19,506 nt of DNA from a bacterium (GCA_041497675.1 JBGQGY010000070.1:1-19506); one strand, 5' to 3'; counted from the first letter of the stretch, positions 1 to 19,506 are shown. Notes: a model not told the origin generated them from the sequence alone. Numbers and translations are program-made.

Positions 1-1164
1 AACACGTACATTGACTTCTCGTCCGGCATCTATGTGACGAGCCTGGGCCACTGTCATCCGAAGGTCACCGAGGCCGTTCGCCGGTATGCCGGCACCCTCA
101 TGAACTGCCACGACTTCACGACGCCCGTGAAGACTCGCCTCCTCGAGCGGCTGGCTGAAATCGCTCCCGGCGATCTGCACGGGGCGCAATTCTACGACAG
201 CGGCACAACGGCGGTGGAGGCGGGGCTGCGCATCATGCGCGCCGCCACGGGCAAAATGGAGTTTATTTCCTTCTATAATGCGTTCCACGGCAAGACCCTG
301 GGGGCGGCCAGCCTCGGCCACATGGACGCGTCACAGGGTCTGCGGGCGCCGGGTTTTCACCGTGTGCCTGGCCCGTATCCGTACCGCTGCCCCTGGGGCG
401 ACGAGTGCCGGGACTGCGGGACGCGGGCGGTCGAGCACTTGCGCGACGTGCTCAGACAGCAGACCGCGGGGCGGGTTGCCGGGGTCGTGGTCGAGCCGAT
501 CCAGGGCTGGGCGGGGTCGATCGTGCCGCCGGACAGTTTCCTGCCGGCGTTGCGCGCGCTGTGCGATGAGTATGGGCTGCTCCTGCTCGCCGACGAGGTG
601 CTCTGTGGCATGGGCCGGAGCGGCAAGATGTTCGCCGTCAATCACTGGAACGTCGTGCCGGACGTGCTGACGGTGGGGAAGGGGCTGGGAAACGGATTTC
701 CCGTCACCGCCGTGCTGGTCACCGACCGGCACAAGGACGCGGTCGAAAAGATCAGCGCGTCGACCTCGTACGGCGGGAATCCGATGGCGTGCGCCGCGGC
801 ACTGGCGTCCATCGAGGTCATCGAGGAAGAAGATCTCGTTCGGCGCTCCGCCGACTTGGGCGATTACCTCCTGACCCGCATGCGCGGCATGGCTGCGGGC
901 CACCCGATCATCGGCGAAGTACGCGGCAAGGGCTGCATCCTGGCCATAGAACTCGTCAAGGACCGGACCACGAAGGAGCCGTTCACGAAGGCGGGCGAGA
1001 TGGTCTATCGCAAGGCGTTTGAGCGTGGCCTGGCTTGGATCCCGGCCGGGCACATCTTGCGGATGTCGCCGCCTCTCATCATGGAGAGGGCTGTGGCGTC
1101 TAAAGCCCTTGACGTGATTGAAGAGGCGATTGCGGAGACGGAGCGAGAACTCGGCGTCGCCTGA
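1..1164 (+). CDS. Class-III PLP-dependent aminotransferase (GabT/ArgD-like family), 5'-truncated
   Basis: Frame is open from base 1 (NTYIDFSSGIYVTSLGHCHP), so the real start lies upstream of the window. Motifs: FHGKT, EPIQG, ADEVLCGMGRSGK, TVGKGLGNG (PLP Lys), SYGGNP, EVRGKG, LRMSPPL. Confidence 0.93.
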   Translation, partial: NTYIDFSSGIYVTSLGHCHPKVTEAVRRYAGTLMNCHDFTTPVKTRLLERLAEIAPGDLHGAQFYDSGTTAVEAGLRIMRAATGKMEFISFYNAFHGKTLGAASLGHMDASQGLRAPGFHRVPGPYPYRCPWGDECRDCGTRAVEHLRDVLRQQTAGRVAGVVVEPIQGWAGSIVPPDSFLPALRALCDEYGLLLLADEVLCGMGRSGKMFAVNHWNVVPDVLTVGKGLGNGFPVTAVLVTDRHKDAVEKISASTSYGGNPMACAAALASIEVIEEEDLVRRSADLGDYLLTRMRGMAAGHPIIGEVRGKGCILAIELVKDRTTKEPFTKAGEMVYRKAFERGLAWIPAGHILRMSPPLIMERAVASKALDVIEEAIAETERELGVA

Positions 1165-2480
1165 TGCCCGGCGGTCACGAATCGTCCAGCATCCGCTGCG
1201 GCGTCGCCCGCGTCGATATTAGCCCCGCTCCCGGCACCGAGCTGGCCGGCTACCCGTTCGTTCGTCGCCCCTGTCGCGGGACGCACGACCCGCTCTACGC
1301 CACGGCGATGGTCTTTGACTCGAACGGGGCGTCGGCGGCCATCATCGCCCTTGACGTGCTTGCCGTCGGTCCCTCGCTCGTCGGGACCATCCGGGAGCAC
1401 ATCCACCGCCGTCTCGGGATTCCTCCCGACCATGTCCTGGTGTGCGCCACGCACACCCATTCGGCGCCGGCGCTGCCGCTGGGCCCGGCCGCGGATCCCG
1501 GCGTGTACGGGGCCGCCGATCCGGCCTACACGGGCGGGCTTCCGGCCTGCGTGCACGAGGCGTGTGACGCGGCGGCGGCCGCGCGTCGGCCCATCGCGCT
1601 GACACTTGGTCATGCCTGGGTCGACGGTGTCGCATCCAATCGTCGCCATCCCGGCGGCGTGACCGACTCGCGCGTGACGGCGCTCTTCGCCCGTGATCCT
1701 ACCGGACAGGTCGTCGGCGTCGTCTTGAACTTCGCGTGCCACCCGACCGTCCTGCACGCCGACAACGCGCTCGCGTCGTCGGACGTTGTCTGGGCGGCGC
1801 GTCGTGTCGTAGAAGAGCGCCTGGGCGGCATCGCCCTATACACGACCGGGGCCGCAGGGGACCAGAGCACACGGCATACGCGGCGCGCGGCCACCTTTGA
1901 CGAGGCCGACCGGTTGGGATCGATCGTGGGTGAAGAGGCTGCCGCCTGCGCCCCGCGTGCGAACGCGCTGGCCGGAACCCGAGTTGGCGGCAGACGCCGC
2001 CACGTGACGCTGCCGTTTCGACGTCTGCCATCCCGCCAGGACGCGGAACGACACCTCGCGCGCGCCGAGGATCATCTGGCGGCATTGACGGCCGCCGGCA
2101 CCCCAGGCCCCGCGCTTCGTACCGCCGAGGTCGAGGTGTTCGGAGCGCGCCACACGGCGCGGTGGGTCAAGGACGACGCCGGCGCCTCGGGTGCCGCCGC
2201 CTCGGGCGCCCGAGCCGAGGTGCAGGTACTCGCGATCGGCGACCTGAGGATCGCCGGCTTGCCGGTCGAGCTATTTGCCGAGGATGGGCTGCGCCTGCAG
2301 GCCGGCACCAAAGCCCCGCTGATCGTCGTCTGCTACGCGAACGACATGCTTGGATACGCCCCGCCGCCGGCAGCATTTCACGAAGGCGGTTACGAGCCGT
2401 CGTCGACGCTCTTGGGGCCGGAGGCGAAAGACCGTGTACTGGATGCCGCGCTCGAACTCCTCCAGGCGGTGCAGGTCTGA
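1164..2480 (+). CDS. Neutral/alkaline ceramidase N-terminal-domain-like metallo-amidohydrolase
   Basis: Motifs DISP..G..LAGY, THDPLYA, ATHTHSAP, NFACHPT, GAAGD, LPVELF, YAND..GY and GGYE are typical of bacterial ceramidase-like proteins. TGATG coupling to the upstream gene. Confidence 0.82.
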   Translation: MPGGHESSSIRCGVARVDISPAPGTELAGYPFVRRPCRGTHDPLYATAMVFDSNGASAAIIALDVLAVGPSLVGTIREHIHRRLGIPPDHVLVCATHTHSAPALPLGPAADPGVYGAADPAYTGGLPACVHEACDAAAAARRPIALTLGHAWVDGVASNRRHPGGVTDSRVTALFARDPTGQVVGVVLNFACHPTVLHADNALASSDVVWAARRVVEERLGGIALYTTGAAGDQSTRHTRRAATFDEADRLGSIVGEEAAACAPRANALAGTRVGGRRRHVTLPFRRLPSRQDAERHLARAEDHLAALTAAGTPGPALRTAEVEVFGARHTARWVKDDAGASGAAASGARAEVQVLAIGDLRIAGLPVELFAEDGLRLQAGTKAPLIVVCYANDMLGYAPPPAAFHEGGYEPSSTLLGPEAKDRVLDAALELLQAVQV

Positions 2481-3964
2481 CGCGCGCGGTGCTGGGGATC
2501 GACCTCAGCACGACCTCGGCGAAGGCCGGCGTACTCGCCGCCGACGGGCGGCTTGTCGCTGTTGAGATCATCGACTACGAATCCCGCTACGGCCCCGGAG
2601 GCATCGTTGAGCAGGATGCGTTCGCCTGGTGGGATGCTGCGACGCGGGCGGTGCGCGCGGTGCTCGCGCACGTGCCGGACGCGGCCGTGGAGGGCGTCTC
2701 GATTTCCTCCCAGGGGATCACCGTGGTGCCTGTCGGCGACGACAACCAGCCGATCCGGGCGGCCCTGACGTGGCTGGATCTGCGCGCGACCGCCGAGGCC
2801 GGCGCGCTGGCCGCCGCCGGCGCGCCGGAGGCCATCTTTCGCCTGACCGGCCGCCGGCCCAGCGCCGCGTACACGCTGCCGAAACTCATGTGGCTTCGAA
2901 TGCACGAGCCGGACGTTTTTGCGCGCGCGCGCGCCTTCTTGCTGCCGATGGATTTTCTGCTGGCCCGTCTGACGGGCGTCCCGACAACCGATCACACGAT
3001 GGCGTCGGGGACCCTGTGCTACGATCTCACGACCCTTGGCTGGTCGCCCGCGTTGCTGCAGCACGCGGGTCTGGATGCGACGCGGCTCCCGCCGATCCAG
3101 TGGGCGGCGTCTCTCGCCGGGTCGGTCAACCGCGACGCCTCTCGCGCGACAGGACTGAGAGAGGGGACGCCCGTGTTCGTCGGGGGGCAGGATCAGAAGT
3201 GCGCGGCGCTCGCGGCGGGACTGGAATCTGATGTCGTCACCATCTCATTGGGGACGGCGGCGGCCATCATCGCGCTGACCCGCGAGGCGACGCTCGATCC
3301 CGCGATGCGCGTGCCGGCGTGCCCGTACCTGTTTCCGGGCGGATGGCTGCTGGAGGGAGTGGTCGGAACCGCCGGCGCCAGCCTCGCCTGGCTGCGCCGC
3401 ATCCTCGAAGGGGCCGGTGGGATGCCTCTCGACTACGATGTGATCACGTCGCGCGCGGGACAGTCGCCCATCGGGGCGCGCGGCGTCCGCTTCTACCCGC
3501 ATCTCTCCGGGGCGACGGCGCCTTCCTGGCACGCGGATGCACGCGGGGCGTTCTGCGGGCTCGCGTTGAGCACCACGCTCGACGATTGCGCGCGCGCAGT
3601 CCTCGAAGGCGTCGCGTTGCAGGTGCGCGCCAACCTGGACGCCATGACGGAGCTGGGGGTGCGCCCGTCTTCGCTCCGCGTCTTCGGCGGGGGCGCGAAG
3701 AGCAGCCTCTGGCGCGAGATCCTGGCTGCGGCGACGGGATTGCCGATCATGCACTCTGACCTCGTCGAGGCCGCTGTCCTGGGAGCCGCCGCCCTGGCCG
3801 CCCTGGGCGCGGGTCTGTGGACGTCGCCGTCTGCCGGCGTCGCCGCGTTGCGGCGGTGGGGCGGCGAACAACGAGTGCAGCCGGCGGCTGCGGCCGTCGA
3901 GGCATACGATCGCGTGTACACGGAGTACTGCGCCACAGAGGCGCGAGTGATTGGGCACGCCTGA
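2477..3964 (+). CDS. FGGY-family carbohydrate kinase (xylulokinase-like)
   Basis: Motifs VLGIDLSTTSAK, EQD, WLDLRA, PKLMW, TDHTMASGT, GGQDQ, SLGT, EGVA, FGGGAKS. The ORF-track start at 2162 overlaps the upstream gene by more than 300 nt. The real start is probably CTG 2477 (CTGA overlap) or GTG 2489. Confidence 0.92.
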   Translation: MTRAVLGIDLSTTSAKAGVLAADGRLVAVEIIDYESRYGPGGIVEQDAFAWWDAATRAVRAVLAHVPDAAVEGVSISSQGITVVPVGDDNQPIRAALTWLDLRATAEAGALAAAGAPEAIFRLTGRRPSAAYTLPKLMWLRMHEPDVFARARAFLLPMDFLLARLTGVPTTDHTMASGTLCYDLTTLGWSPALLQHAGLDATRLPPIQWAASLAGSVNRDASRATGLREGTPVFVGGQDQKCAALAAGLESDVVTISLGTAAAIIALTREATLDPAMRVPACPYLFPGGWLLEGVVGTAGASLAWLRRILEGAGGMPLDYDVITSRAGQSPIGARGVRFYPHLSGATAPSWHADARGAFCGLALSTTLDDCARAVLEGVALQVRANLDAMTELGVRPSSLRVFGGGAKSSLWREILAAATGLPIMHSDLVEAAVLGAAALAALGAGLWTSPSAGVAALRRWGGEQRVQPAAAAVEAYDRVYTEYCATEARVIGHA

Positions 3965-3991
3965 AGACGCTCGCGGGTGGCGCGGGGCCGT

Positions 3992-4789
3992 TTACCAGAT
4001 GGTCCAGCCGCCGTCCACCACGAGGTTGTGCCCCGTGATGAACGCGGAGGCATCGGAAGCGAGGAAGACGATGACCCCTCGTAGGTCGTCGGGTTCTCCG
4101 AGCCGGCCCAACGGCGTCCGTGCCACAAGCCGAGCCCTGACGTCCGGCGGGATCCCTCGATCCGCCACGTCGATCCGGCCAAACATGCCGGGGCTGATGG
4201 CATTGACGGTGATCCCGTGACGCGCCCAACCGGCGGCCAGATCCCGCGTCAGGCTGAGTAGGGCGCCCTTGCTCGTCGCGTAAGGCAATGACTGCGCGGT
4301 ATCGAGATCGCCCTCTGCGTACAGGGACAGGTCCCGGCCCACCGATCCGTAGACAGACGACACGTTGATAATGCGGCCGCGGCGCCGCGCGATCATGTGG
4401 GGACCGGCCGCGCGGCAGCAGAGAAAGACGCCGGTCACGCTCACGTCCAGCACGCGCTGCCACTCGGCCAGCGGCTGAACGGGCACCGGGGCGCGATGAT
4501 ACCCGACGGCGTTGTTGACCAGCACGTCGATGGCACCGAACGTGGAGAGAATCTGGTCGAAGGCCGTACCGACCGCCGATTCGTCGGTCACGTCGGCGCT
4601 GATCGCCAGCGCCTGGCGGCCCAGACGCCGGATCTCCTCCGCTGTCGACTTCAGCGGTTCCGGTCTGCGGCCGATGACCGCGACCGCCGCCCCGGCCTCG
4701 GCGAGCGCCAGCGCGAAGACCCGGCCGAGACCTGATCCCCCGCCGGTCACCACGGCGGTCCGGCGGTCAAGACGGAACATGTCCATCAT
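3992..4789 (-). CDS. Short-chain dehydrogenase/reductase (gluconate 5-dehydrogenase/KduD-like classical SDR)
   Basis: Motifs TGGGSGLG, DVTD, LVNNA, SS, YATSK (YxxxK), VNAISPG, ITGHNLVVDGG. Start at ATG 4789 forms an ATGA overlap with the upstream stop. GRR after beta-2 suggests NADP(H) preference. Confidence 0.92.
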   Translation of the reverse strand: MMDMFRLDRRTAVVTGGGSGLGRVFALALAEAGAAVAVIGRRPEPLKSTAEEIRRLGRQALAISADVTDESAVGTAFDQILSTFGAIDVLVNNAVGYHRAPVPVQPLAEWQRVLDVSVTGVFLCCRAAGPHMIARRRGRIINVSSVYGSVGRDLSLYAEGDLDTAQSLPYATSKGALLSLTRDLAAGWARHGITVNAISPGMFGRIDVADRGIPPDVRARLVARTPLGRLGEPDDLRGVIVFLASDASAFITGHNLVVDGGWTIW

Positions 4790-5988
4790 GCCGTTCCCTG
4801 CGCGGCGCCGCCGGGTTGATGCGACACCTTCCACGGCCGCGGCGCGAACGGAAAGCGCTCAAGCGTTTCGCGTGTGAGCCGGACCCCAAATCCCGGGACC
4901 GTCGGCGGGTGGAGATACCCACCGCGGATATCGAACGGCTCGATCAGCAATTCGTCAAACAACGGATTCTGCTCGACCTGGTATTCGACGATCGTGCAGT
5001 CCGGCTGCGAGAACGCAAAGTGGTAGTTCGCCGCCCGCGCGACCGCCGTGCCCGCGACATGCAGCGTCGAGCGTATGCCGTGCGCGCGCGCCAAGGCGAA
5101 GGTTTTTTGGGCCGCGCCGATGCCCATCCAGGCGACATCGGGTTGAATCACGTCGAGCGCGTCTTTCTCCAGATACCGTTCGATCTCGTGCACGGTCGTC
5201 GCCTCTTCGGCGCCCGCGATCGGCGTCGTCACCTGGGCCCGTAGCCGTGCGTACCCTTCGACATCGTCCGATGCGCAGGGTTGCTCGAACCACATCAGAC
5301 GGTACTGATCAAGCGCCTGGATGATGTGAATGGCCGCGTCGCTCGACCACGGGTGGGGGTTGTTCGCGCCGTGATGGTCGAGCGCGAGATCAATGCGGCT
5401 GCCGACGGCGCGCCGAATCGCCTCCACCTTGGAGCACTCTTCATCGATCACCTGCGCAATGGGCGTGTCGTGATCGCGGGGTTTGCCCCAAAACCCTGTG
5501 GCGAGCTTGACGGCGGTGAATCCCTGCGCGACGTAGTGAAGGACCTTCTGTGCGGACTCCTCCGGTGGAAACAGCGAGGCATACGCGCTCGCGTACAGGC
5601 GCAGTGTGCCTTGCGCCAAGCCGCCCAGCACCTGATAGGCGGGCAGATTGAGTCGCTTGGCGTGCAGGTCCCACAACGCCATCTCGATACCGCTCATGAC
5701 TTGCACGGGCAGCCCGTGCATGCCCCAGCGCATCGACCGCAGGCGCATCGTGTCCATCAGCCGCCCGATGTCGTGGGGGTCTTGTCCGAGCAACAAGGGG
5801 CGATACAGATCAACACACGGCGGCACCAGCGGCGCCACGTATAGCCCGGCGTAAGTCTCGCCCAATCCGGTCGCGCCATCGTCGGTCGTGATGTGAATCA
5901 GCGCTGCAGAGCGCTGCGTATCCGGCATGCCGATGTGTGTGCCCGGCGCGGTCAGCAGAAAGGTCGACACGTCGGTGATACGGGTCAT
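4786..5988 (-). CDS. Mandelate racemase/muconate lactonizing enzyme family protein (probable acid-sugar dehydratase)
   Basis: Motifs TDDG.TG.GE and SGIEMALWDL.AK; metal ligands in LDHH, FEQP and GAEE; IQPD, LH, VEY, P..PGFGV. Confidence 0.92.
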   Translation of the reverse strand: MTRITDVSTFLLTAPGTHIGMPDTQRSAALIHITTDDGATGLGETYAGLYVAPLVPPCVDLYRPLLLGQDPHDIGRLMDTMRLRSMRWGMHGLPVQVMSGIEMALWDLHAKRLNLPAYQVLGGLAQGTLRLYASAYASLFPPEESAQKVLHYVAQGFTAVKLATGFWGKPRDHDTPIAQVIDEECSKVEAIRRAVGSRIDLALDHHGANNPHPWSSDAAIHIIQALDQYRLMWFEQPCASDDVEGYARLRAQVTTPIAGAEEATTVHEIERYLEKDALDVIQPDVAWMGIGAAQKTFALARAHGIRSTLHVAGTAVARAANYHFAFSQPDCTIVEYQVEQNPLFDELLIEPFDIRGGYLHPPTVPGFGVRLTRETLERFPFAPRPWKVSHQPGGAAQGTA

Positions 5989-6965
5989 GGTGCGACCTGC
6001 GGATTGACCAGATTGATCGGAGGACCGCCCGCGCGGTACGAGTCAATGATGCGTAGCCACTCGTCAACGAGGGCATGAATGCTCTCCACAGTGCTGCCGG
6101 CCGTGTGTCCGGTGATGATCACATGATCCATCTGCAGCAGGGGATGATCGAGTGCAGGCGGTTCCTGTTCGAGGACGTCCAAACACGCCCCGGCGATCTG
6201 GCCGCGCTGCAGGGCATCGGTCAATGCGCGTTCGTCCACCAAACCACCGCGGCTGGTGTTCAAGAGATAGGCGGTCGGCTTCATCGTGGCGAGTTCGCGC
6301 GCGCCGATGAGGTGTCGCGTGGTGTCGTTCAAGCGCAGGTGGAGGGAGACAAAGTCCGCGCGCGCCAGCAGCTCGTCACGTGTGACAGGGTCGCCATGAT
6401 CTGTACGGATGTCGTGCGCCGAGACATACGGATCGCACACGAGCACGTGCATGCTCAACGCGTGTGCCCGCCAGGCCACGGCGCGAGCGATCTTGCCAAA
6501 CCCGATCAGACCGAGCGTCTTGCCGGCGAAACGATAGCGAGGCTGGGCGCGGGGCGCGAGGGGCCATGCGCCGGCGCGCACCGCCGCTTCGAGCGCCCGC
6601 AGCTTGCGGGCACATGCCAGGAGGAGCATGAGCGTATGTTCGGCCACGTCTTCGACGTTGTAGGTGGCCGCGTTGCAAACCATGACGCCGCGCTCGGTGG
6701 CCGCCTGAACGTCGATGTGATCGTAGCCGCTCCCCGACGAGATAATGAGGCGGAGGCGTGGGAGGTGGTCGAGCACAACGCGGGTCACCGGGAAGCGATA
6801 CGCGAGGTAGATGCTGGCGTTCGTCGCGCGCGCAATGACCTCCTGTTCGGACATGCACTGTTCAAGCGCCAAGGTGATGCGTCGCTCGGCCAGACGTTGC
6901 CGCAGGATGTCGTACGCCCACATGACATCGCGTTCGTAGTTGGAGGCAAAGACGTGGTCGATCAT
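5985..6965 (-). CDS. D-isomer-specific 2-hydroxyacid dehydrogenase (CtBP/SerA-like, NAD-dependent)
   Basis: Motifs GSGYDHIDV, VAEHT, GLIGFGKIA, CDPY, DFVSLH, NTSRG, LDVLEQEP, TGHTAG (Arg/Glu/His catalytic set). GGAGG lies 8 nt before ATG 6965, so this start is preferred over GTG 6974. Confidence 0.92.
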   Translation of the reverse strand: MIDHVFASNYERDVMWAYDILRQRLAERRITLALEQCMSEQEVIARATNASIYLAYRFPVTRVVLDHLPRLRLIISSGSGYDHIDVQAATERGVMVCNAATYNVEDVAEHTLMLLLACARKLRALEAAVRAGAWPLAPRAQPRYRFAGKTLGLIGFGKIARAVAWRAHALSMHVLVCDPYVSAHDIRTDHGDPVTRDELLARADFVSLHLRLNDTTRHLIGARELATMKPTAYLLNTSRGGLVDERALTDALQRGQIAGACLDVLEQEPPALDHPLLQMDHVIITGHTAGSTVESIHALVDEWLRIIDSYRAGGPPINLVNPQVAP

Positions 6966-7005
6966 GCCGTGCACCTCCGATCACGCACCGCGGCGATCGT
7001 CGGAC

Positions 7006-7035
7006 TTGACAGTGCAGCCGAGCCACGCCTAGAGT
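7006..7035 (+). promoter_or_regulatory. Sigma70-type promoter for the ABC transporter operon
   Basis: Perfect TTGACA (7006-7011), 18-nt spacer, TAGAGT (7030-7035), in an AT-richer divergent intergenic region. Confidence 0.7.
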
Positions 7036-7037
7036 AG

Positions 7038-7060
7038 ACTGTGTAAGTGTATTGCATAGT
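7038..7060. promoter_or_regulatory. Putative repressor operator, site 1 (ACTGTGTAA-GTGTA-TTGCATAGT)
   Basis: Imperfect palindrome with 7/9 arm symmetry directly after the -10 element. Related copies at 14625-14647 and 18375-18397. Confidence 0.72.
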
Positions 7061-7101
7061 TTGCACCCTCTTACCTTCCTACAGGCACAAGGAGCGAGGA
7101 G

Positions 7102-8664: not shown

Positions 8665-8692
8665 CAGCGGGCATCACCGCGATTCACACACC

Positions 8693-10437: not shown

Positions 10438-10439
10438 AC

Positions 10440-12442: not shown

Positions 12443-13611
12443 CGATCACGGACCTGAAGACCTTCGTCGTCAATCCAGGCCACCGCGTGTCATTTGGGAC
12501 CGGGTGGGGCAAGAACTGGATCTTCGTCAAGCTCTACACCGATCAAGGCCTCGAGGGCGTCGGGGAGGCGTTCTCGACCGGGCAGGATCTCGCCACGGTG
12601 GAGGTGCTCGAGGGGTTCAAACGGTGGCTCGTCGGCCGCGACCCCACGCGCGTGATTCACCACTGGCAGGCCCTGCATCGCTCGGCGCGATACCCGATGG
12701 GCACGGCGTCGATGGCCGCCCTCAGCGCCGTGGAGGTCGCCTTGTGGGACCTGACCGGCAAGGTGTTCGGGGCGCCCATCTACCGCCTGCTTGGCGGTCC
12801 GTGCCGCGATCGCGTCCGTGTGTACGCCGGCGGTCTGCTGGTGCCGGGCGCCGACGATCAAGTGGCAGCCGCCCGCGCGCTCGTGCAGGGTGGGTTTGGG
12901 GCCATCAAGTTTTGGCCGCAGCCGTTGAGGTATGCGGGTGAGAGCGGAGCGGCGCTCGTCGAGCACGCCGTGGGTCTGACGCGGGCCCTCCGGGATGCCG
13001 TCGGAGAGAGCGTGGACCTCTGCATCGACTATCATGGCCGCAGCTTTAGCCCGGCCGAAGCGCTCCAGACCATCAAAGCCTTGGAAGGATTTCATCTGCT
13101 GTTTCTGGAGGAGCCGACGCTCTACGACAATGTCGACGCGCTGGCCGAACTGAAGGCCAAGACCACCATCCCGATCGCGGCGGGCGAGAAGATCGTCGGT
13201 CGGGCCCAGTGGCGCGAGCTGATCGCCCGGCGCGCTGTTGACATCATCCAGCCCGACCCCGTCGTGTGTGGCGGCATCACAGAGACGCTCAAGATCGCGG
13301 CCATGGCAGAGGCATATCAGATCCTCTTGGCGCCACACCACGCATCGGGCCCGGTCGCCATGGCGGCGTGCGCACACATTGCCGCGTGTGCGCCGAACTT
13401 CCTGATCCAGGAATTCGGAGTGATCGATTCTGAGTGCGCCCGGGCAATCGTCCCTGACCCACTGCGACTTCGCGACGGGTTTCTCGATTTGCCCGAGAAA
13501 CCCGGGCTGGGGATCGAGTTCAACGAAGAGGCGGCGGGGGCGTATCCGTATCGTCCTTTCGATCGGCCCGTCGTCATCGATCGGAGGGATGGATCGGTTG
13601 GACTCGAGTAG
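12439..13611 (+). CDS. Mandelate racemase family protein, D-galactonate dehydratase (DgoD)-like
   Basis: Motifs WIFVKLYTD, ALWDL.GK, LGGPCRDRVRVY, DYHGR, FLEEP, PIAAGE, IQPD..CGGITE..KIAAMAEAY, APH, IQE resemble DgoD. GTGA overlap, with AAGGAG RBS upstream. Confidence 0.9.
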   Translation: MTITDLKTFVVNPGHRVSFGTGWGKNWIFVKLYTDQGLEGVGEAFSTGQDLATVEVLEGFKRWLVGRDPTRVIHHWQALHRSARYPMGTASMAALSAVEVALWDLTGKVFGAPIYRLLGGPCRDRVRVYAGGLLVPGADDQVAAARALVQGGFGAIKFWPQPLRYAGESGAALVEHAVGLTRALRDAVGESVDLCIDYHGRSFSPAEALQTIKALEGFHLLFLEEPTLYDNVDALAELKAKTTIPIAAGEKIVGRAQWRELIARRAVDIIQPDPVVCGGITETLKIAAMAEAYQILLAPHHASGPVAMAACAHIAACAPNFLIQEFGVIDSECARAIVPDPLRLRDGFLDLPEKPGLGIEFNEEAAGAYPYRPFDRPVVIDRRDGSVGLE

Positions 13612-14599
13612 CGTTCGTCGATTCGTCGTCGTTGGCGCGGGCGGCGTCGGCAGTGTGCTGGCCGGGTTTCTAGCGCGGGCGGGTGTGCCCGTGGTGATCG
13701 TGGCCCGTCGCGCCCATGTGCAGGCCGTGAACGAGCGCGGGCTGCAGGTGGTAGGAGAGGGTGGAGCGACGTGGACGGTCCCGCTCCGCGCGGAGACCAC
13801 CGTCGCCGATTGCGGGTTGCGGTCGGACGACGTCGTGATGTGCACCGCCAAGTCCTATGATACGCACGCCATCGTCGAGAGTGTTGCGGCCGCGCTCCCG
13901 TCCGGACCGGCGGCGTTCGTGTGCGCGCAAAACGGAGTACGGAACGAAGCGGTCGCGGCGGCGCGTCTGCCCCGCGTCTACGGCGCGATGGCGCGGTTCC
14001 GGGGCCGCCTCCTGGAACCCGGCCGCGTGTACGCCCCCGGGACACACCACCTAACCTTTGGCCGGTACCCGGACGGGACGGACGACCTGATCGACGAGGT
14101 TGCCCGCCGCTGCGCCGGGGCGGGCATCGGCGCCACGACGACGCCTGATGTGATGCGACTCAAGTGGTCCAAGCTGGTGGCCAACTGCGCCAACGCCGTC
14201 TACGCTGTGGCCAACGTCCAGGTCGACCAGGTATGGGGCGACGCCGCGTTGGGGCTCCTGGTGAATCGCATCTGGGCTGAGGCGGAGTCCGTCCTACGTG
14301 CCGCCGGCATCGCGTTCGAGCCGGTCCCGCCGGTCCCGCCGCCCAGCGCGTCGGCGCCCCGCCGAGGACCCGGTACGATCGAGTTCTATGGGTCGACCTG
14401 GGACGACCTCGCGCAGCGAAAAGGCCGGACCGAGGTTGACTGGTTCAACGGCGAGATCGTCCGGCTGGGGCGGGACACCGGGCGACCGACCCCGCTCAAT
14501 GCGCTGCTGCTCCGAGCATGTACTGAGATGACCGCGCAGCGCGCGGATCCGGGGCGCTTCACCGTCGCGCAGTTGCTCGCGATGGCAGACGGCAATTGA
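13589..14599 (+). CDS. Ketopantoate reductase (PanE/ApbA) family 2-keto-acid reductase
   Basis: Motifs VVGAGGVG, TAKSYD, AQNG, KWSKLVANCAN, GSTWDD, TEVDWFNGEIV, PTPLN. TTG 13598 is an alternative start that is better spaced from GGAGG. Confidence 0.88.
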   Translation: MDRLDSSSVRRFVVVGAGGVGSVLAGFLARAGVPVVIVARRAHVQAVNERGLQVVGEGGATWTVPLRAETTVADCGLRSDDVVMCTAKSYDTHAIVESVAAALPSGPAAFVCAQNGVRNEAVAAARLPRVYGAMARFRGRLLEPGRVYAPGTHHLTFGRYPDGTDDLIDEVARRCAGAGIGATTTPDVMRLKWSKLVANCANAVYAVANVQVDQVWGDAALGLLVNRIWAEAESVLRAAGIAFEPVPPVPPPSASAPRRGPGTIEFYGSTWDDLAQRKGRTEVDWFNGEIVRLGRDTGRPTPLNALLLRACTEMTAQRADPGRFTVAQLLAMADGN

Positions 14600-14623
14600 C
14601 ACGCTGTGTCCCCGTGTTAGAGT
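14596..14623 (+). promoter_or_regulatory. Sigma70-type internal promoter for the lyase/aldolase/isomerase genes
   Basis: TTGACA (14596-14601, overlapping the upstream TGA stop), 16-nt spacer, extended -10 TGtTAGAGT (hexamer 14618-14623). Both hexamers are identical to those of the 7006 promoter. Confidence 0.72.
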
Positions 14624-14624
14624 T

Positions 14625-14647
14625 GGTGTAAAAGTGTATTGCACAGT
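14625..14647. promoter_or_regulatory. Putative repressor operator, site 2 (GGTGTAAAA-GTGTA-TTGCACAGT)
   Basis: AAGTGTATTGCACAGTT (14632-14648) matches AAGTGTATTGCATAGTT (7045-7061) at 16/17 positions and has almost the same position relative to the -10. Confidence 0.72.
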
Positions 14648-14685
14648 TGCTCCCACTAGCAGCGATGCCAAAGGAGACCGCATCC

Positions 14686-15639
14686 ATGTCTGTGACAACC
14701 GCTGAACTCCGCGATCGGCTTCGCGGCCCGGTCGTGGCCATGACGACACCGTTCAACCGGGACCTCTCCCTCGACCTCGGCGGCCTGCGACGCCTGACCG
14801 AGTTCTACGTGGAGTCCGGCATCCGGACGGTCATCGCCGCCGGCAGCACCGGCGAGTTTGCCGCGTTGTCTGATGACGAGCGCCGCCAGGTCATTCAAAC
14901 GGTCGTGGAGCACGGTAGGGGACGGGTGACGGTGGTCGCCGGATGCGCGCATTCCGGAACGAAGCTCACCAGCGACCTGGTGCGATTCGCTGAGGAGATC
15001 GGCGCGGACGGGGCGATGATCACGCCGCCGTACTATGGCTTCGATGGCACCGACGGATTGCGCCGTCACTTCGAGCTGATCGCCGAGGCGTCGCCGCTCC
15101 CCGTGGTGATCTATTTCAGCGGGGCGGTGCTGAGCAAGGTCACCAACATCATCGCCGATCCGCGGCTGCTCTACCGGTTGTGCGAGGTGCCCACGATCGC
15201 CGGGTTCAAGGATGCGACCGGCAACTGGGCGTTCCACCGTGACATCGCCCTGGCCCTCAAAGGACGCGTAGCTGTGATGGGGAGCGCGGGCATGAACCAC
15301 TACCTCTGGGGGCACATCTTTGGCGCTCCGTGTTTCCTCACCGGGTTGGGGAACATCTGGCCCAAGGTGGAGCTGGAATTCTACCAGGCGCTCGAACGCG
15401 GCGATCGCGTCACCGCGGAGCGCATCGCCATCGAGCAGGACGTCCCGTATCTTCGCGCGGCGACCAAGCACAACTACTTTGCGGCGGTCAAGGTGCTGCT
15501 TGACGCGGCCGGGCTTCCGGGCGGCCCGGTGCGGCCCCCGCTGCTTGATTGGCCAGAGCAATCAGCGGAGGGGCTGCGCCAGGCCATGGTGGGCATCGGC
15601 GTGCTGCCCCCACGTACCGCGTCCGCTCGGAGGGGCTGA
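14686..15639 (+). CDS. Dihydrodipicolinate synthase/N-acetylneuraminate lyase family protein (probable 2-keto-3-deoxy sugar-acid aldolase or dehydratase)
   Basis: Motifs AMTTPF, AGSTGEF..LS..ER, VVAG, GADG, TPPYY, VIY, FKDA (Schiff-base Lys), GPVRPPL. AAGGAG lies 9 nt before ATG 14686. Confidence 0.9.
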   Translation: MSVTTAELRDRLRGPVVAMTTPFNRDLSLDLGGLRRLTEFYVESGIRTVIAAGSTGEFAALSDDERRQVIQTVVEHGRGRVTVVAGCAHSGTKLTSDLVRFAEEIGADGAMITPPYYGFDGTDGLRRHFELIAEASPLPVVIYFSGAVLSKVTNIIADPRLLYRLCEVPTIAGFKDATGNWAFHRDIALALKGRVAVMGSAGMNHYLWGHIFGAPCFLTGLGNIWPKVELEFYQALERGDRVTAERIAIEQDVPYLRAATKHNYFAAVKVLLDAAGLPGGPVRPPLLDWPEQSAEGLRQAMVGIGVLPPRTASARRG

Positions 15640-15663
15640 ACCGCCACACACATTGAAGGGGAG

Positions 15664-16497
15664 ATGCTGACGGTGGGTCCGCGTCTAGGCCGGCTGCTTG
15701 GCAGCGACAACCGATGTGTCAACGTCGCCGTCGACCACGGATTGTTCAACGAGCGGGTGTTCCTGACCGACATCGAGGACATGCCACGTGTGGTCCACTC
15801 TATCGCGACCGCCGATCCCGATGCCATCCAGCTCACGCCGGGACTGGCGCATCTGCTGCAAACCATCCCCGGGCGCAGGAGGCCCGCGTTGGTCCTGCGG
15901 ACCGATGTGGCCAACGTGTACGGCAACTCGCTGCCGCGCGTGTTGTTCAGCCGCGTGCTCGATCACGCGGTGGAGCGCGCCGTCCGGCTGGACGCTGCGG
16001 GCGTCGTCGTCAACTTGCTGTGGCTGCCGGATCAGCCGGAGCTTCACGAGCAGTGCGTGGCCAACGTGGCACGGCTGCGCGCCGCGTGTGATCGCTACGC
16101 GATGCCCCTGATGGTCGAACCCCTGGTGATGCGCCCCAACCGTGAGGGGGGTGGGTACATGGTCGACGGCAACCTCGATAGGATCATGACCCTCGTGCGG
16201 CAGGCCGTTGAACTCGGTGCGGACGTGGTGAAGGCCGACCCGTGCGACGATCCCTCCCAGTACCATCAGGTGATCCGGATCGCCTGCGGCAGGCCGGTGC
16301 TGGTGCGCGGCGGCGGGAAGGTGCCGGACCTCGAGATCCTCACCCGGACATGGGAAGTCATGAAGCAGGGCGCGGCCGGCGTCGTGTACGGTCGGAACAT
16401 CATTCAGCACGCCCACCCGGCTGGGATGGTGCGCGCGCTGATGGCCATCGTGCATGAGACGGCAACCCCGGAGCAGGCCCTTCGCCTGCTGGGGTGA
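15664..16497 (+). CDS. Class I aldolase, DhnA/LsrF/FbaB-like family
   Basis: Motifs AVDHG, AVRLDA, PLMVEP, ELGADVVK (Schiff-base Lys), VLVRGG, GAAGVVYGRNI.QH. Confidence 0.88.
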   Translation: MLTVGPRLGRLLGSDNRCVNVAVDHGLFNERVFLTDIEDMPRVVHSIATADPDAIQLTPGLAHLLQTIPGRRRPALVLRTDVANVYGNSLPRVLFSRVLDHAVERAVRLDAAGVVVNLLWLPDQPELHEQCVANVARLRAACDRYAMPLMVEPLVMRPNREGGGYMVDGNLDRIMTLVRQAVELGADVVKADPCDDPSQYHQVIRIACGRPVLVRGGGKVPDLEILTRTWEVMKQGAAGVVYGRNIIQHAHPAGMVRALMAIVHETATPEQALRLLG

Positions 16498-17570
16498 ACG
16501 CCTTCCTCCGGAGGCCGCTTCGCCTCCCACCCAATCGCATCCGGGTGTTTTATCAAGGCGGCGCGCTGATCGACCGCCTGCGCGGCATTCCCAACCCTCA
16601 GGATGACGATCGTCCCGAGGATTGGGTGGGATCAGTCACGGCCTTGGGGTGGCCGGGTCGGGATCCGGCCGAGGGCGTGAGCGTTGTCGAGATCGACGGG
16701 CGTCGCGTCCTGCTCACCGATCTGGTGCGTGCGCATCCTGAAGAGATGCTCGGCGCAGAGCATCTCCGGCGATTCGGCCCGACGCCGTCGCTCCTGGTCA
16801 AGCTCCTCGACACATCGATCCGGTTGCCCGTCCACAGTCATCCCCCACGGGTGTTTGCGCGCCAACACCTTGGATCGCCCTACGGCAAGACCGAGGCGTG
16901 GATCGTGGTCGGCACGCGACAGGTGGGTGGGGAGGCGCCGTCGGTGTACCTGGGCTGCAGCCGGGATGTTTCGAAAGAAGAACTGCTGACGTGGATCCGA
17001 GGGCAGTCCGTCGTGCATCTGCTCGGAGTCCTGCATCGACTGCCGGTCCGGGCCGGGGACGTCATCTATGTCCCGGCCGGTCTACCCCACGCCATCGGTC
17101 CCGGTGTGTTCATCGTCGAACTTCAAGAACCGACGAGCTTCTCCGTGCTGATGGAGTACCAGGGCTTTCCCATCGATCCGGCCGCCGCGCATCTCGGCCT
17201 CGGATGGGATCTTGCCGTCCAGTCTGTCGACCGTACAGCCTATGGGCGCGACGAGTTGATGCGTCGTTTTGTCAGCCGGCTTCCCGAGACCGTGGGGAGT
17301 GTGGATCTCTTCGGTGCCGCCGGCGGCCCGTATTTTGGCGCGTCCCGCATTCGCGTGCATCCCGAGACGGACGTTGCGATTGCCCCCGGATTCGCGATCG
17401 GGATCGTTCTCGACGGAGCCGGCTCGCTCGCCGGTCCGGATGGACCGTTCCCTTTGGGGCGCGGCGATCAGTTTCTGATTCCCTTTGCGATGGGACCCCA
17501 CCGCGTCCATGCGGGGGCCGCTGGGATTGAGCTGATCAGATGCCTGCCTCCCTCGGTTACCATGGTTTGA
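16494..17570 (+). CDS. Type I phosphomannose-isomerase-like cupin (sugar-phosphate isomerase)
   Basis: Motifs PEDW, LLVKLLD, LPVHSHP, GKTEAW, GDVIYVPAG.PHAIG, ELQEPT. GTGA overlap with the aldolase. Confidence 0.85.
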   Translation: MNAFLRRPLRLPPNRIRVFYQGGALIDRLRGIPNPQDDDRPEDWVGSVTALGWPGRDPAEGVSVVEIDGRRVLLTDLVRAHPEEMLGAEHLRRFGPTPSLLVKLLDTSIRLPVHSHPPRVFARQHLGSPYGKTEAWIVVGTRQVGGEAPSVYLGCSRDVSKEELLTWIRGQSVVHLLGVLHRLPVRAGDVIYVPAGLPHAIGPGVFIVELQEPTSFSVLMEYQGFPIDPAAAHLGLGWDLAVQSVDRTAYGRDELMRRFVSRLPETVGSVDLFGAAGGPYFGASRIRVHPETDVAIAPGFAIGIVLDGAGSLAGPDGPFPLGRGDQFLIPFAMGPHRVHAGAAGIELIRCLPPSVTMV

Positions 17571-18336
17571 ACCCGGGAACGTTGTCGAGGTGATGCAGGA
17601 TGAGCGTCCTGAGTGTCTCGGCGTCCCGGCGGCGCAGCGCGCGGACCAGCGCGCGATGCCGTTCCAACTGATCGGCCACGCCGTTGGTTGAATGACCGGC
17701 CAGCGCGACGTCAGGCCTCGCCATCGCCGTCAGCCTGAAGAACTGTCGCAAGAGGCCGTCGCCGATGTGGATCAGGGCGGGATTTCGCGTGATCTGCAGC
17801 AACCGCAGATGGAACTCCAGATCGGTGTGGACGGTGAACGACTCTCCCGTCGTCGCCCGCGCCAGAACGGCATCAAGCGCGTCGCAATCCGCGTCTGTGA
17901 CCCTGGCGCACATGAGATCGACGGTCCCGAGCTCGAACGCGACGCGCGCGGTGGCCAGTTCGGCCGTCGTCGTGTCTGCGAGCAGGCCGCCACGGTCGCT
18001 TCCGCTGCGGGCCTGGGCTGGATCGCGGACGAAGATGCCGCGGCCGTGGTAGGTTCGCAGCATACCCTTCGTTTCGAGTATCCTGAGCGCTTCCCGGACC
18101 ACTGGAATACTGACCTGAAAACTCTGGCTGAGGTTTCGCTCCGAGGGGAGTCGGTCGCCGGCGTGCAACCGTTTTTGCGCCACAAAATTCTCAAGCGCCT
18201 GTGCAACACGTACCGACAACGTCTCTCGCGTGATCGGCCCGATGGGCGCGTCGGACACCCGGTGCCCAGCGCCGGCGCGACCCGCGGGAGCTCGAGGCGG
18301 CCGCCGCGTTGTCCGCTTCTGAAGCCTGTTCGCCAT
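17557..18336 (-). CDS. GntR-family transcriptional regulator, FadR subfamily (wHTH + FCD)
   Basis: wHTH motifs GDRLPSER.L...FQVS..VVREALRIL...G and HGRGIFV; FCD motifs ARVAFE, DLEFH, RNP, ERH, HHL. Alternative start at GTG 18258. Its 3' end overlaps the convergent cupin gene by 14 nt. Confidence 0.93.
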   Translation of the reverse strand: MANRLQKRTTRRPPRAPAGRAGAGHRVSDAPIGPITRETLSVRVAQALENFVAQKRLHAGDRLPSERNLSQSFQVSIPVVREALRILETKGMLRTYHGRGIFVRDPAQARSGSDRGGLLADTTTAELATARVAFELGTVDLMCARVTDADCDALDAVLARATTGESFTVHTDLEFHLRLLQITRNPALIHIGDGLLRQFFRLTAMARPDVALAGHSTNGVADQLERHRALVRALRRRDAETLRTLILHHLDNVPGFKPW

Positions 18337-18374
18337 GTGCGCCGTCCGTCGATCCCGCGGGTGGTGAGTGCTCT

Positions 18375-18397
18375 ACTGAGCAACTCACTTGAACAGT
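18375..18397. promoter_or_regulatory. Putative repressor operator, site 3 (ACTGAGCAA-CTCAC-TTGAACAGT), likely autoregulatory
   Basis: On the minus strand it reads ACTGTTCAA-GTGAG-TTGCTCAGT, aligning with sites 1 and 2, with 7/9 arm symmetry. It lies upstream of the GntR gene. Confidence 0.68.
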
Positions 18398-18404
18398 CTC
18401 GCCA

Positions 18405-18413
18405 AGTTTACCA
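18405..18413 (-). promoter_or_regulatory. Candidate extended -10 promoter (TGgTAAACT) for the GntR gene
   Basis: The minus strand reads TATGGTAAACT, ending 7 nt upstream of operator site 3. No clear -35 element. Confidence 0.45.
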
Positions 18414-18436
18414 TAGATCGCGACGACGGGGGGATT

Positions 18437-19279
18437 TCAGCGGGTCGATTGCAGGAACGAGGTCACGATCTCGGTCCAACGTTCGGGGTGCTCCGTCTGG
18501 ACGTGGTGACGCGCGTTGGCAAGAACGTGCAGCTCAACGTCGGCCAGCCGGCCGGCAAATGCGGCCGCGTCGGCCGGGCTCGCCCCCGTATTCTCGCGGC
18601 TCCAGGTCAGCAGGACGGGCATCGCGAGGCGGCCGGCATGCTCCGAGATATGCCTGCCTTTGTACGATAGATTGCGGTTCCACTCGGCCGGCGTCTGGCC
18701 CAGGACGGCGCGCCGCGCCTTGGCGAACTCAAAATTCGTTGTCGACATCTCGAGTGTACGGTGCAGGCGCGATTCAGTGACGATCTCTTTGTTGAAGTAG
18801 AACTCCCGCAGATACTGCCGTTTGCTCTCAATGGTGGGATACGTATCAGTGTCGCGCGGCAGCGGATAGTCCGCGGGAACCGGCGACGTGCCGTTCAGGC
18901 TGTTGATGATCACGAGCCGCCGCACCAGTTCAGGCGCTTCGTGTGCGATGTACTGGATCAGCCAGCCGCCGTGGGAGTTGCCGGCCAGATGGGCCGGCGT
19001 GCCCAGTGCTCTGAGGAACCGGATGAGAACATCACCCTGGGCGCTCGCGGAGAAGTCCTGTGGCCCGCGGCCCGGCGTGAGCCCGAATCCCACGACGTCG
19101 ACCGCGACCACGCGGAAGCGGCGGGAGAGCGGCTCGATCACCGCACCATAGGTCAGTTCGGCGCAGCACCAGACCAGCCCGCCGTGAATCAGGACGAGCG
19201 TGTCGCCCTTACCGGCTTCCAGATAGTGGGTGCGGATACCGTCGACATCGATGTAGCGATCCTGCCAGGCCGCCGGCAT
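18437..19279 (-). CDS. Alpha/beta-fold hydrolase
   Basis: Motifs THYLEAGKG..LVLIHGG and VAVDVVGFGLT; nucleophile elbow GNSHGG; C-terminal ARHHVQTEHPE. Confidence 0.92.
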   Translation of the reverse strand: MPAAWQDRYIDVDGIRTHYLEAGKGDTLVLIHGGLVWCCAELTYGAVIEPLSRRFRVVAVDVVGFGLTPGRGPQDFSASAQGDVLIRFLRALGTPAHLAGNSHGGWLIQYIAHEAPELVRRLVIINSLNGTSPVPADYPLPRDTDTYPTIESKRQYLREFYFNKEIVTESRLHRTLEMSTTNFEFAKARRAVLGQTPAEWNRNLSYKGRHISEHAGRLAMPVLLTWSRENTGASPADAAAFAGRLADVELHVLANARHHVQTEHPERWTEIVTSFLQSTR

Positions 19280-19281
19280 CG

Positions 19282-19506
19282 TTACCCGCGCCCCGGGCGC
19301 GCGTAGAATTCGGCCATTTGATCCAAGACGACCTCGATGCCATCGCCCATCTCGGGGTGCGATGGGAGGGTGACGATCTCTTCCACCAGCCGGTCGGTCA
19401 CCGGTCGCGGCCCGGGGTCCTCACCGGCACGCGCGACGTAGGCCGGCGCCCGGTAGACGGGCTGCCGGTAGTGGATCGCGCACTCCGTGCCCTTCGCCGC
19501 CAGGAA
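19282..19506 (-). CDS. DegT/DnrJ/EryC1/StrS-family PLP aminotransferase, C-terminal 74 aa (truncated by window edge)
   Basis: Manual translation: FLAAKGTECAIHYRQPVYRAPAYVARAGEDPGPRPVTDRLVEEIVTLPSHPEMGDGIEVVLDQMAEFYARPGRG*. The G....IHY..P and LP..P pattern is typical of the DegT C-terminus. The stop lies 2 nt before the hydrolase ATG. Confidence 0.8.
   Translation of the reverse strand, partial: FLAAKGTECAIHYRQPVYRAPAYVARAGEDPGPRPVTDRLVEEIVTLPSHPEMGDGIEVVLDQMAEFYARPGRG

Follow-up and report, generated by a model that had tools for sequence, protein, structure and literature searches.

An importer-linked divergent gene cluster with a candidate operator and putative sugar-acid enzymes, set in a row of bacterial catabolic cassettes

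The stretch of bacterial DNA studied here (19,506 nucleotides (nt), JBGQGY010000070.1 of assembly GCA_041497675.1; hereafter the window) is an entire contig, C70, of an assembly that comprises 272 contigs and 3.97 Mb and is rated 98.6% complete. Its centre encodes a five-component importer, the enolase-superfamily enzyme ENO2, a PanE-like oxidoreductase, a DHDPS-family Schiff-base enzyme, a DeoC-like aldolase and a cupin, in that order, and this row of genes converges with the gene of a regulator of the FCD type. A divergent operon (operon 2) encoding a short-chain dehydrogenase (SDR), a second enolase-superfamily enzyme (ENO1) and a 2-hydroxyacid dehydrogenase lies to its left. The left end carries a further operon (operon 1) encoding an aminotransferase (AT3), a ceramidase-like protein (CerL) and an FGGY kinase, and the right end carries an alpha/beta hydrolase gene and a DegT fragment. 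Gene families were called from an open reading frame (ORF) listing and from Pfam and NCBIfam scans of the window, and coordinates are collected in Table 1.

A preliminary description of the same DNA had spoken of 20 tightly packed genes. The packing holds, with eight gene junctions being start/stop overlaps or gaps of ≤2 nt and gaps >50 nt occurring only at 6975-7101, 14600-14685 and 18337-18436, but the count does not, as its own list sums to 19. Every family it named was recovered in its place by ORF listing, Pfam and NCBIfam, and the catabolic role it proposed is likely. Composition was uniform all along the contig, with a GC content of 0.66 (0.659 for the genome) and a tetranucleotide correlation of 0.98, within the genome's own range. 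Recent gene transfer was considered and rejected because this profile is native and carries no compositional sign of transfer. An Rfam scan of the window gave zero family matches. We think that the window probably strings together four or more catabolic units, each with its own organisation, instead of encoding one long pathway. The real entity within it, at a probability of roughly 0.6, is formed by operon 2 and the central genes (units B and C, ~3992-18336), i.e. a divergent operon pair with a convergent FCD regulator.

Table 1 Genes and promoter-like elements of the window, in order of position.
Feature	Position	Strand	Basis or remark
Class III (pyridoxal-phosphate) aminotransferase AT3	1-1164	+	PF00202, E=1.2e-94; 5' end cut by contig end
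CerL, short neutral-ceramidase-like metallohydrolase, 438 amino acids (aa)	1164-2480	+	PF04734, 50.1 bits
FGGY sugar kinase, xylulokinase-like	~2480-3964	+	FGGY_N and FGGY_C (Pfam)
Short-chain dehydrogenase SDR	3992-4789	-	adh_short_C2, E=9e-56; last gene of operon 2
ENO1, enolase-superfamily dehydratase or cycloisomerase	4786-5988	-	MR_MLE_N 1.4e-11, MR_MLE_C 1.2e-55
D-isomer 2-hydroxyacid dehydrogenase	5985-6974	-	PF02826, PF00389; first gene of operon 2
P1, promoter-like, TTGACA-18-TAGAGT	7006-7035	+	Consensus scan; 17-mer AAGTGTATTGCATAGTT at 7045-7061
SBP_bac_5 binding protein (family 5)	7102-8664	+	Pfam
Two BPD_transp_1 permeases	8693-9637; 9607/9667-10437	+	Pfam
Two ATPases with oligo_HPY tails	~10440-11432; 11393/11429-12442	+	Pfam
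ENO2, acid-sugar dehydratase, galactonate-dehydratase-like	12439-13611	+	MR_MLE_N 1.4e-19, MR_MLE_C 1.2e-64
PanE-like (PanE/ApbA, ketopantoate-reductase family) oxidoreductase	13589-14599	+	PF02558, PF08546
P2, promoter-like, TTGACA-16-TAGAGT	14596-14623	+	Consensus scan; 17-mer AAGTGTATTGCACAGTT at 14632-14648
DHDPS/NAL-family Schiff-base enzyme (aldolase or KdgD-like dehydratase)	14647/14686-15639	+	PF00701, 139.9 bits, E=9e-41
DeoC/LacD (DhnA-type) class I aldolase	15664-16497	+	PF01791, 122.8 bits, E=2e-35
Bicupin like phosphomannose isomerase (PMI)	16494-17570	+	Cupin_2, 32.3 bits; MPI_cupin_dom (PF21621), 26.2 vs 27
GntR and FCD regulator (FadR subfamily)	17557-18336	-	PF00392, 6e-18; PF07729, 1.4e-16
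Alpha/beta hydrolase, GNSHGG motif	18437-19279	-	Pfam
DegT fragment, 74-residue C-terminal piece	19282-19506	-	Read from sequence; confirmed via the third DegT gene of contig C117

When metagenome contigs were searched with ENO2, 64 loci were obtained, and one (L012, 10.3 kb) was colinear with the window at 75-91%, from the end of the binding-protein gene through the permeases, ATPases, ENO2 (89% identity), PanE, DHDPS, DeoC and cupin to the regulator (89%), which held the same convergent position. Two more (L013 and L018) were fragments at 93-100% identity, and the remaining 61 contained paralogous enolase genes only. The stretch from importer to cupin, together with the convergent FCD regulator, is one conserved unit, and it is rare. 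Amongst 93 other genomes of the phylum, there was no match to the cupin at E≤1e-20 or to ENO1 at E≤1e-70, and 40 relatives gave no ENO2 match >45% identity among the matches listed; ENO1, ENO2 and the cupin thus had one common phyletic pattern. In a plasmid search, ENO2 matches were ≤42% identical and the DHDPS-like protein had no match at 1e-30.

On the plus strand, the only two intergenic gaps of any size hold the promoter-like sequences P1 and P2, which have the hexamers TTGACA/TAGAGT in common. A 17-mer, AAGTGTATTGCAYAGTT, starts 8-9 bases past each -10 hexamer. At ≤3 mismatches it has two sites in the window, compared to 0.01 expected by chance, and a single 3-mismatch site elsewhere in the genome, on contig C83. 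The P2 hexamers and their 17-mer were conserved on L012 (6399-6447). No inverted repeats were detected in the intergenic regions (seed 6, length 10), and the 17-mer itself contains just an imperfect palindrome, GTGTA-T-TGCAC. The adjacent regulator belongs to the FadR subfamily, scores below the NanR, LldR and ExuR equivalog cut-offs, and its gene overlaps that of the cupin by 14 nt. Judged from its placement, the 17-mer is a candidate operator that is probably bound by this regulator. As both promoters carry the same hexamers and a genome-unique 17-mer, both central transcripts appear to answer to one signal. P1 lies within the region shared with operon 2, so operon 2 may join the same regulon, and no convincing hexamers of its own were seen when 6975-7101 was read by eye. 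The sequence upstream of operon 1 lies past the contig end.

The importer genes (7102-12442) encode a complete Opp/Dpp-type ABC system, with a family-5 binding protein, two permeases and two ATPases with oligo_HPY tails, and none of its components reached a substrate-specific NCBIfam equivalog. The best solved relative of the binding protein was AgaA (E=1.8e-30), followed by YliB, AapF and 5yyb/5z99/5za4; we take the last three structures to be the Haemophilus ducreyi sialic-acid binding protein, their database label being only 'putative ABC transporter periplasmic binding protein'. ENO2 scored 308.5 bits on the DgoD equivalog (NF010624), 2.5 short of the cut-off of 311, and 42.5 bits on the Ala-Glu epimerase model. 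Its candidate motifs for the three carboxylate metal ligands and the His/Asp acid-base pair of the superfamily are IDYHG, LEEP, AAGE, IQPD and PHHAS, with a tentative placement on the barrel strands. The PanE-like protein exceeded the cut-off of its subfamily model (TIGR00745, 173.8 bits vs 141). The DHDPS-like protein is a member of the DHDPS/N-acetylneuraminate lyase family and contains GSTGE, PPYY and GFKDATG, presumably the Schiff-base lysine and tyrosine motifs. Its top NCBIfam match was the 5-dehydro-4-deoxyglucarate dehydratase subfamily (148.8 bits vs 278), PDB 4ur7 was among its matches, and it missed the equivalogs DapA (135.2/206), KdgD (123/374), NanA (82.8/281) and archaeal KDG (2-keto-3-deoxygluconate) aldolase (54.5/390). 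Its likelier start is ATG 14686, behind AAGGAG. The DeoC-like aldolase spans all of PF01791 (positions 1-229 of 229) and has MJ0400 and LsrF as PDB neighbours, scoring below the ADH synthase, LsrF and archaeal FBA (fructose-bisphosphate aldolase) cut-offs. The cupin scored 51.5 bits on the type I PMI model (TIGR00218, cut-off 116) and matched Bacillus PMI 1qwr (E=1.5e-17). Its residues H114, H116, E134 and H199 were invariant among 25 homologues, and it is probably a sugar or sugar-phosphate isomerase of the metal-dependent type.

The preliminary description had recognised no described pathway in this gene set. We likewise found no gene-for-gene match, and the NCBIfam equivalog cut-offs for galactonate dehydratase, KdgD, NanA, DapA, LsrF, ADH synthase, PMI and xylulokinase were all missed. 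A sialic-acid-type cluster was considered, since the regulator had NanR as its top NCBIfam match (104 bits vs a cut-off of 260) and 5yyb/5z99/5za4 were among the matches of the binding protein. It was rejected, NanA, NanK and NanE being below cut-off or absent, and survives only within the reading of a higher-carbon sugar acid given below. A sulfoquinovose pathway was also rejected: in the part of the source available to us, such routes use the YihS, FucI-type, PfkA/PfkB, FbaA and YihT families (PMC9594981), which do not fit the gene set of the window. Another pairing of dehydratase and Schiff-base enzyme occurs on contig C205 (10-3998), where two enolase-superfamily genes precede a DHDPS-family gene.

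ENO1, in operon 2, has both the N-terminal capping and the C-terminal barrel domain of the enolase superfamily, with LDHHG, FEQP, GAEE, IQPD and LHVAG as the corresponding candidate motifs, whose strand placement is likewise tentative. It scored 164.4 bits on the galactonate dehydratase model NF010624 and 42.5 bits on the Ala-Glu epimerase model, and its PDB neighbours include lactone and anhydro-sugar-acid cycloisomerases, with the Gci structure 4ggb matched. ENO1 is rare, with 41 proteins at E≤1e-60 among 5.8 billion, its own protein counted. The top NCBIfam match of the SDR was the gluconate 5-dehydrogenase subfamily (251.8 bits vs 279), and the likelier start of the 2-hydroxyacid dehydrogenase, judged by an upstream GGAGG, is ATG 6965. 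Two ENO1 relatives, at 73% and 68% identity, shared source, contig count and contig size with ENO2-like proteins (53% identity): P0245 and P0019 each had one Logan contig of 23764 nt, and P0248 and P0047 each had five contigs, the longest of 29254 nt. This suggests that ENO1-type and ENO2-type genes lie on one contig in two further organisms and travel together. Further relatives were found at 76% identity for ENO1 (P0243/P0244) and at 72% for ENO2 (P0004).

The right end of the window (unit D) has a different affiliation. Its last 306 nt (19201-19506) overlap contig C117 (10911-11216) in reverse with 4 mismatches (98.7% identity), and the assembly break between C70 and C117 is probably due to strain variation. 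Gene order on C117 is an opposite-strand amidase, SBP_bac_5, two permeases and three tandem DegT genes (L168, 2603-11132). The third DegT gene runs into the fragment in the window, which makes the alpha/beta hydrolase the seventh gene of that cassette. Orthologues of the hydrolase (64-79% identity) occurred in five other genomes of the phylum, and G001, G011, G012 and G042 have the binding protein, three DegT genes and hydrolase in an unchanged order (70-92% identity). Both permeases were found in G011, G012 and G042; the G001 stretch, which begins at a contig start, gave no permease by tblastn. None of these four genomes had a match to the cupin (E≤1e-20) or ENO1 (E≤1e-70), and no ENO2 match >44% identity was found in G001, G011 and G012 among the matches listed, G042 being outside that search. 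The window regulator gave no tblastn match beside hydrolase orthologues in other genomes. L012 has no hydrolase gene, but its sequence stops 233 nt beyond the regulator match. The hydrolase and DegT genes form the end of another importer cassette, one that is conserved independently. GNSHGG is the motif of meta-cleavage-product (C-C bond) hydrolases, and three sugar-aminotransferase-like genes within one catabolic importer cassette are unusual.

Translational coupling joins the three genes of operon 1 (unit A, 1-3964). AT3, the first gene seen, reached no NCBIfam equivalog cut-off with any model, and its stop overlaps the CerL start (ATGA, 1161-1164). CerL covers only profile positions 3-99 of 509 in PF04734 and, at 28.1 bits against a cut-off of 1200, falls outside the ceramidase equivalog NF041649. 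The metal-site motifs are kept, with THTHS, FAxHP and PxE lining up with their counterparts in human neutral ceramidase (4wgk), and its nearest Atlas clusters are 'ceramidase N-terminal domain' proteins of 429-454 aa. The kinase scored 342.6 bits on the XylB model (TIGR01312, cut-off 380). It occupies a long ORF (2162-3964) in which the FGGY Pfam match starts at residue 110, and its start, which is coupled to the CerL stop, probably lies near 2477-2483. The closest CerL relatives (≤40% identity; 14 loci) stood in varied contexts, with an FGGY gene near in 1/14 and an AT3 gene in 2/14, and an AT3-CerL-FGGY operon conserved beside the central genes was not found in any retrieved DNA.

The genome encodes five ceramidase-like paralogues, all inside importer cassettes and all within ~5 kb of an enolase-superfamily match (gaps 29-5010 nt), where the expected chance proximity is roughly 4% (14 enolase matches in 3.97 Mb). 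Across 11 other genomes covered by both searches, at least 12 of 26 ceramidase-like matches lay ≤10 kb from an enolase match among those listed; the figure was counted by hand and is a minimum, 150 of 240 enolase matches being listed, and genome G019 contributes three of the 26 and none of the 12. Since the CerL paralogues stand beside enolase genes in importer cassettes, their context points away from lipids. A literature search for PF04734 or neutral ceramidase with gene clusters found nothing relevant. CerL paralogues also accompany SDR and enolase genes in the orders ENO-SDR-CerL-PermB-PermC-CerL-SBP5 (C9:19000-25000, L169) and SDR-ENO-CerL (C37:15800-25000, L171), and the ceramidase-like/enolase pairing was seen in G001, G006, G012, G027, G032 and G038.

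This arrangement of neighbouring cassettes is typical of the genome, which has 113 matches to SBP_bac_5 (PF00496) and ~94 Opp-type permease pairs, mostly without ATPases of their own adjacent, an extreme expansion of one importer type in 3.97 Mb. Contigs C9 and C37 are built in the same style, their importer genes being interleaved with genes for SDR, enolase, 2-hydroxyacid dehydrogenase, class III aminotransferase, ceramidase-like proteins, peptidases and amidases. With 113 binding-protein matches, side-by-side cassettes are normal here. On C9:30000-52000 (L169, L170), enolase paralogues sit among genes for an AstE/AspA-like desuccinylase, creatininase, S58 peptidase, M55 D-aminopeptidase, D-glutamate cyclase and proline racemase, a neighbourhood that hints at D-amino-acid or N-acyl-amino-acid chemistry. 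For the phylum CSP1-3, the portion of the literature available to us reports copy gains of peptide/nickel and oligopeptide transporters (PMC11962464); as far as term matches in CSP1-3 papers go, 'enolase' and 'ABC transporter' do not occur.

Part of the central unit has a life of its own elsewhere. A cupin-anchored search of contigs, taking one genome per species, yielded 80 loci, mostly from Actinomycetota. A DeoC homologue lay ≤10 kb from the cupin in 7/80 (six at 53-62% identity, one at 35%), and an FGGY kinase was near the cupin in five loci by tblastn and in two more by Pfam (L119, L152). ENO1, ENO2, PanE, DHDPS and the family-5 importer were found in none of the 80. On plasmids of Thioclava and Rhizobium, a 63% identical aldolase is followed by a Gfo/Idh/MocA oxidoreductase, a cupin sugar isomerase and a kinase. 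Since the aldolase and cupin recur in other phyla beside kinases, they look like a portable module for a sugar or sugar phosphate that depends on a kinase, and the window offers just one kinase, the xylulokinase-like FGGY protein of operon 1. Orthology of this kinase to the FGGY proteins beside the Actinomycetota cupins was rejected, given XylB model scores of 342.6 vs 117-134 bits. The widespread module comprises a DhnA-type aldolase, Gfo/Idh/MocA, cupin isomerase, FGGY and/or 1-phosphofructokinase-like PfkB, DUF4432, a ribose-type ABC importer and LacI; it was seen at L097, L119, L141, L146 and L152 (Actinomycetota), L186 (Thioclava plasmid) and L188 (Rhizobium jaguaris plasmid). A literature search on DUF4432 did not find a paper assigning this module.

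Taken at the level of protein families, the central genes and operon 2 would describe the following route. The importer would take up a small polar acid, most likely a sugar acid in free or conjugated form, which ENO2 would dehydrate to a 2-keto-3-deoxy acid; ENO1, the SDR and the 2-hydroxyacid dehydrogenase would do the same with an oxidised form or a lactone. Through a lysine Schiff base, the DHDPS-like enzyme would then cleave the 2-keto-3-deoxy acid, or dehydrate and decarboxylate it in the manner of KdgD, and the PanE-like enzyme would reduce the keto acid or aldehyde product. The cupin isomerase and DeoC-like aldolase would take a sugar or sugar-phosphate fragment to triose phosphate, a step requiring a kinase, possibly the FGGY protein of operon 1. 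As long as the substrate or an intermediate is absent, the FCD repressor would keep both central transcripts silent, one for the importer, ENO2 and the PanE-like protein and the other for the DHDPS-like protein, the DeoC-like protein and the cupin. Our best guess for the substrate is a sugar acid. The nearest solved relatives of the binding protein bind opines, glutathione and small non-peptide ligands, so a sugar-acid conjugate is conceivable too.

Several points weigh against this reading. Each chemical step is assigned from family membership. ENO2, PanE and DHDPS occurred together in 0/80 cupin loci and 0/61 other ENO2 metagenome loci, so the combination is known only from close relatives and could be a chance, recent juxtaposition of two modules. 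L012 begins inside the binding-protein gene, leaving operon 2 and P1 outside its reach, and the co-occurrence of ENO1 and ENO2 relies solely on matching contig sizes. The promoter scan overall was no richer than shuffles (2 vs a mean of 2.1). The central unit itself contains no kinase, and the cupin-adjacent FGGY kinases elsewhere are of a different subfamily from that of the window. Finally, the independent conservation of unit D is strictly compatible with a functional link in this organism.

Given the modular distribution of the DeoC/cupin pair, the central unit might instead be two unrelated neighbouring modules with different substrates, one made up of the importer, ENO2 and PanE and the other of DHDPS, DeoC and cupin. 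Within the block, P2 falls exactly at the border of the PanE-like and DHDPS-like genes, and just as the DeoC/cupin pair occurs elsewhere without ENO2, PanE or DHDPS, ENO2 homologues occur elsewhere without the second module. However, the two promoters share their hexamers and the genome-unique 17-mer, L012 keeps the entire block including its regulator, and the second module lacks an importer, which makes such a division unlikely. We are similarly doubtful that the substrate is, instead of a free sugar acid, a sugar-amino-acid conjugate or a compound resembling an opine or peptide, for which the enolase proteins would serve as epimerases or racemases or would handle the acid moiety only once it has been cleaved off. 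The importer is of the peptide/opine type, and the agropinic-acid binder AgaA leads its solved relatives, ahead of glutathione and small non-peptide binders; other cassettes of the genome join family-5 importers and enolase paralogues with D-aminopeptidase, S58 peptidase, creatininase and AstE-like genes; and relatives of ENO1 carry the JGI label 'L-alanine-DL-glutamate epimerase-like'. Nevertheless, both enolase proteins favour the galactonate dehydratase over the Ala-Glu epimerase model (ENO2, 308.5 vs 42.5 bits; ENO1, 164 vs 42.5), Pfam detects no peptidase, amadoriase or opine oxidase in the central unit, and the AgaA match is distant.

The preliminary description had proposed a single linear route for an N-acylated or amino sugar or sugar acid through all the genes, running from import through amide hydrolysis, transamination, redox steps and dehydration or phosphorylation to aldol cleavage. 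All the family types needed are present and tightly packed in a contig of uniform composition, with CerL or the alpha/beta hydrolase available for the amide hydrolysis and AT3 or DegT for the transamination. CerL has retained an amidase-type set of metal-site motifs and is translationally coupled with AT3 and FGGY, and the central aldolase/cupin pair needs a kinase, for which FGGY is the sole candidate in the window. Yet the parts that are conserved together elsewhere are the central genes, on L012, and the hydrolase/DegT cassette, which has its own importer and recurs in four genomes without a cupin or ENO1 match, three of them also without an ENO2 match >44% among those listed. The 17-mer marks the two central promoters only, the contexts of the 14 CerL-relative loci vary, with FGGY in one and AT3 in two, and adjacent cassettes are to be expected amongst 113 binding-protein genes in 3.97 Mb. 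A route through all 19 genes therefore seems very unlikely, and its opening by deacylation and then transamination comes down to one three-gene operon. A narrower joining, of the central divergon with AT3-CerL-FGGY, would give an undescribed pathway for a higher-carbon (C7-C9 aldonic or ulosonic) or N-substituted sugar acid or conjugate. Here the chain would be cut twice, the DHDPS-like enzyme releasing pyruvate and, after cupin isomerisation and phosphorylation, the DhnA-type aldolase releasing triose phosphate. We regard this as a long shot; if true, short ceramidase-like proteins would be a new hydrolase class for sugar-acid amides or lactones.

With the divergent pair and its convergent regulator as our preferred entity, the central unit offers a bounded target for enzyme discovery, being small and rare and having a binding protein, a regulator and a candidate operator. 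In an uncultured lineage with ~100 Opp-type importers, adjacency alone greatly overstates pathway size, and cassette boundaries are to be set by conservation and shared regulatory sites. If the substrate were found, the little that is known about the diet of the phylum would grow by one compound.

Comparison with known systems places the parts of the window as follows. CerL keeps the N-terminal catalytic-domain motifs of neutral ceramidase (THTHS, FAxHP, PxE) but has 438 aa compared to 636-688 and no C-terminal domain. The Agrobacterium opine regions (AgaA, agropinic acid; AccA, agrocinopine) likewise combine a cluster-C binding protein and five-component importer with catabolic enzymes and a local repressor, whereas their enzyme set is another one, the window has no opine oxidase or lactamase, and the similarity to AgaA is distant (E=1.8e-30 over 330 residues). 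The aldolase/cupin module of Thioclava, Rhizobium and Actinomycetota shares an aldolase 53-64% identical to the DeoC-like protein and a cupin that is PMI-like in Actinomycetota (41-48% identity) and of the D-lyxose/D-mannose isomerase family in Thioclava. It differs in having PfkB and/or FGGY, Gfo/Idh/MocA, DUF4432, LacI and a CUT2-type importer, and in lacking ENO2, PanE, DHDPS and the family-5 importer.

The nearest functional parallels are sugar-acid routes. The De Ley-Doudoroff galactonate pathway consists of DgoD, DgoK and DgoA, and Agrobacterium oxidises uronates through Udh, the galactarolactone cycloisomerase Gci, KdgD and 2-oxoglutarate semialdehyde dehydrogenase. In comparison to these, Pfam detects no KDG kinase, Eda-type KDPG (2-keto-3-deoxy-6-phosphogluconate) aldolase, uronate dehydrogenase or aldehyde dehydrogenase in the window, its proteins miss all equivalog cut-offs, and it adds a PanE-like reductase, a DhnA-type aldolase, a PMI-like cupin and an Opp-type importer. 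The shared logic is a dehydratase or cycloisomerase of the enolase superfamily, followed by a Schiff-base enzyme whose substrate is a 2-keto-3-deoxy acid, with ENO2 near the DgoD cut-off, the DHDPS-like protein closest to the KdgD subfamily and ENO1 matching Gci (4ggb). By this analogy, the centre of the window would work like the oxidative, non-phosphorylative sugar-acid pathways with a borrowed ketose-phosphate aldolase module, a new combination of known parts.

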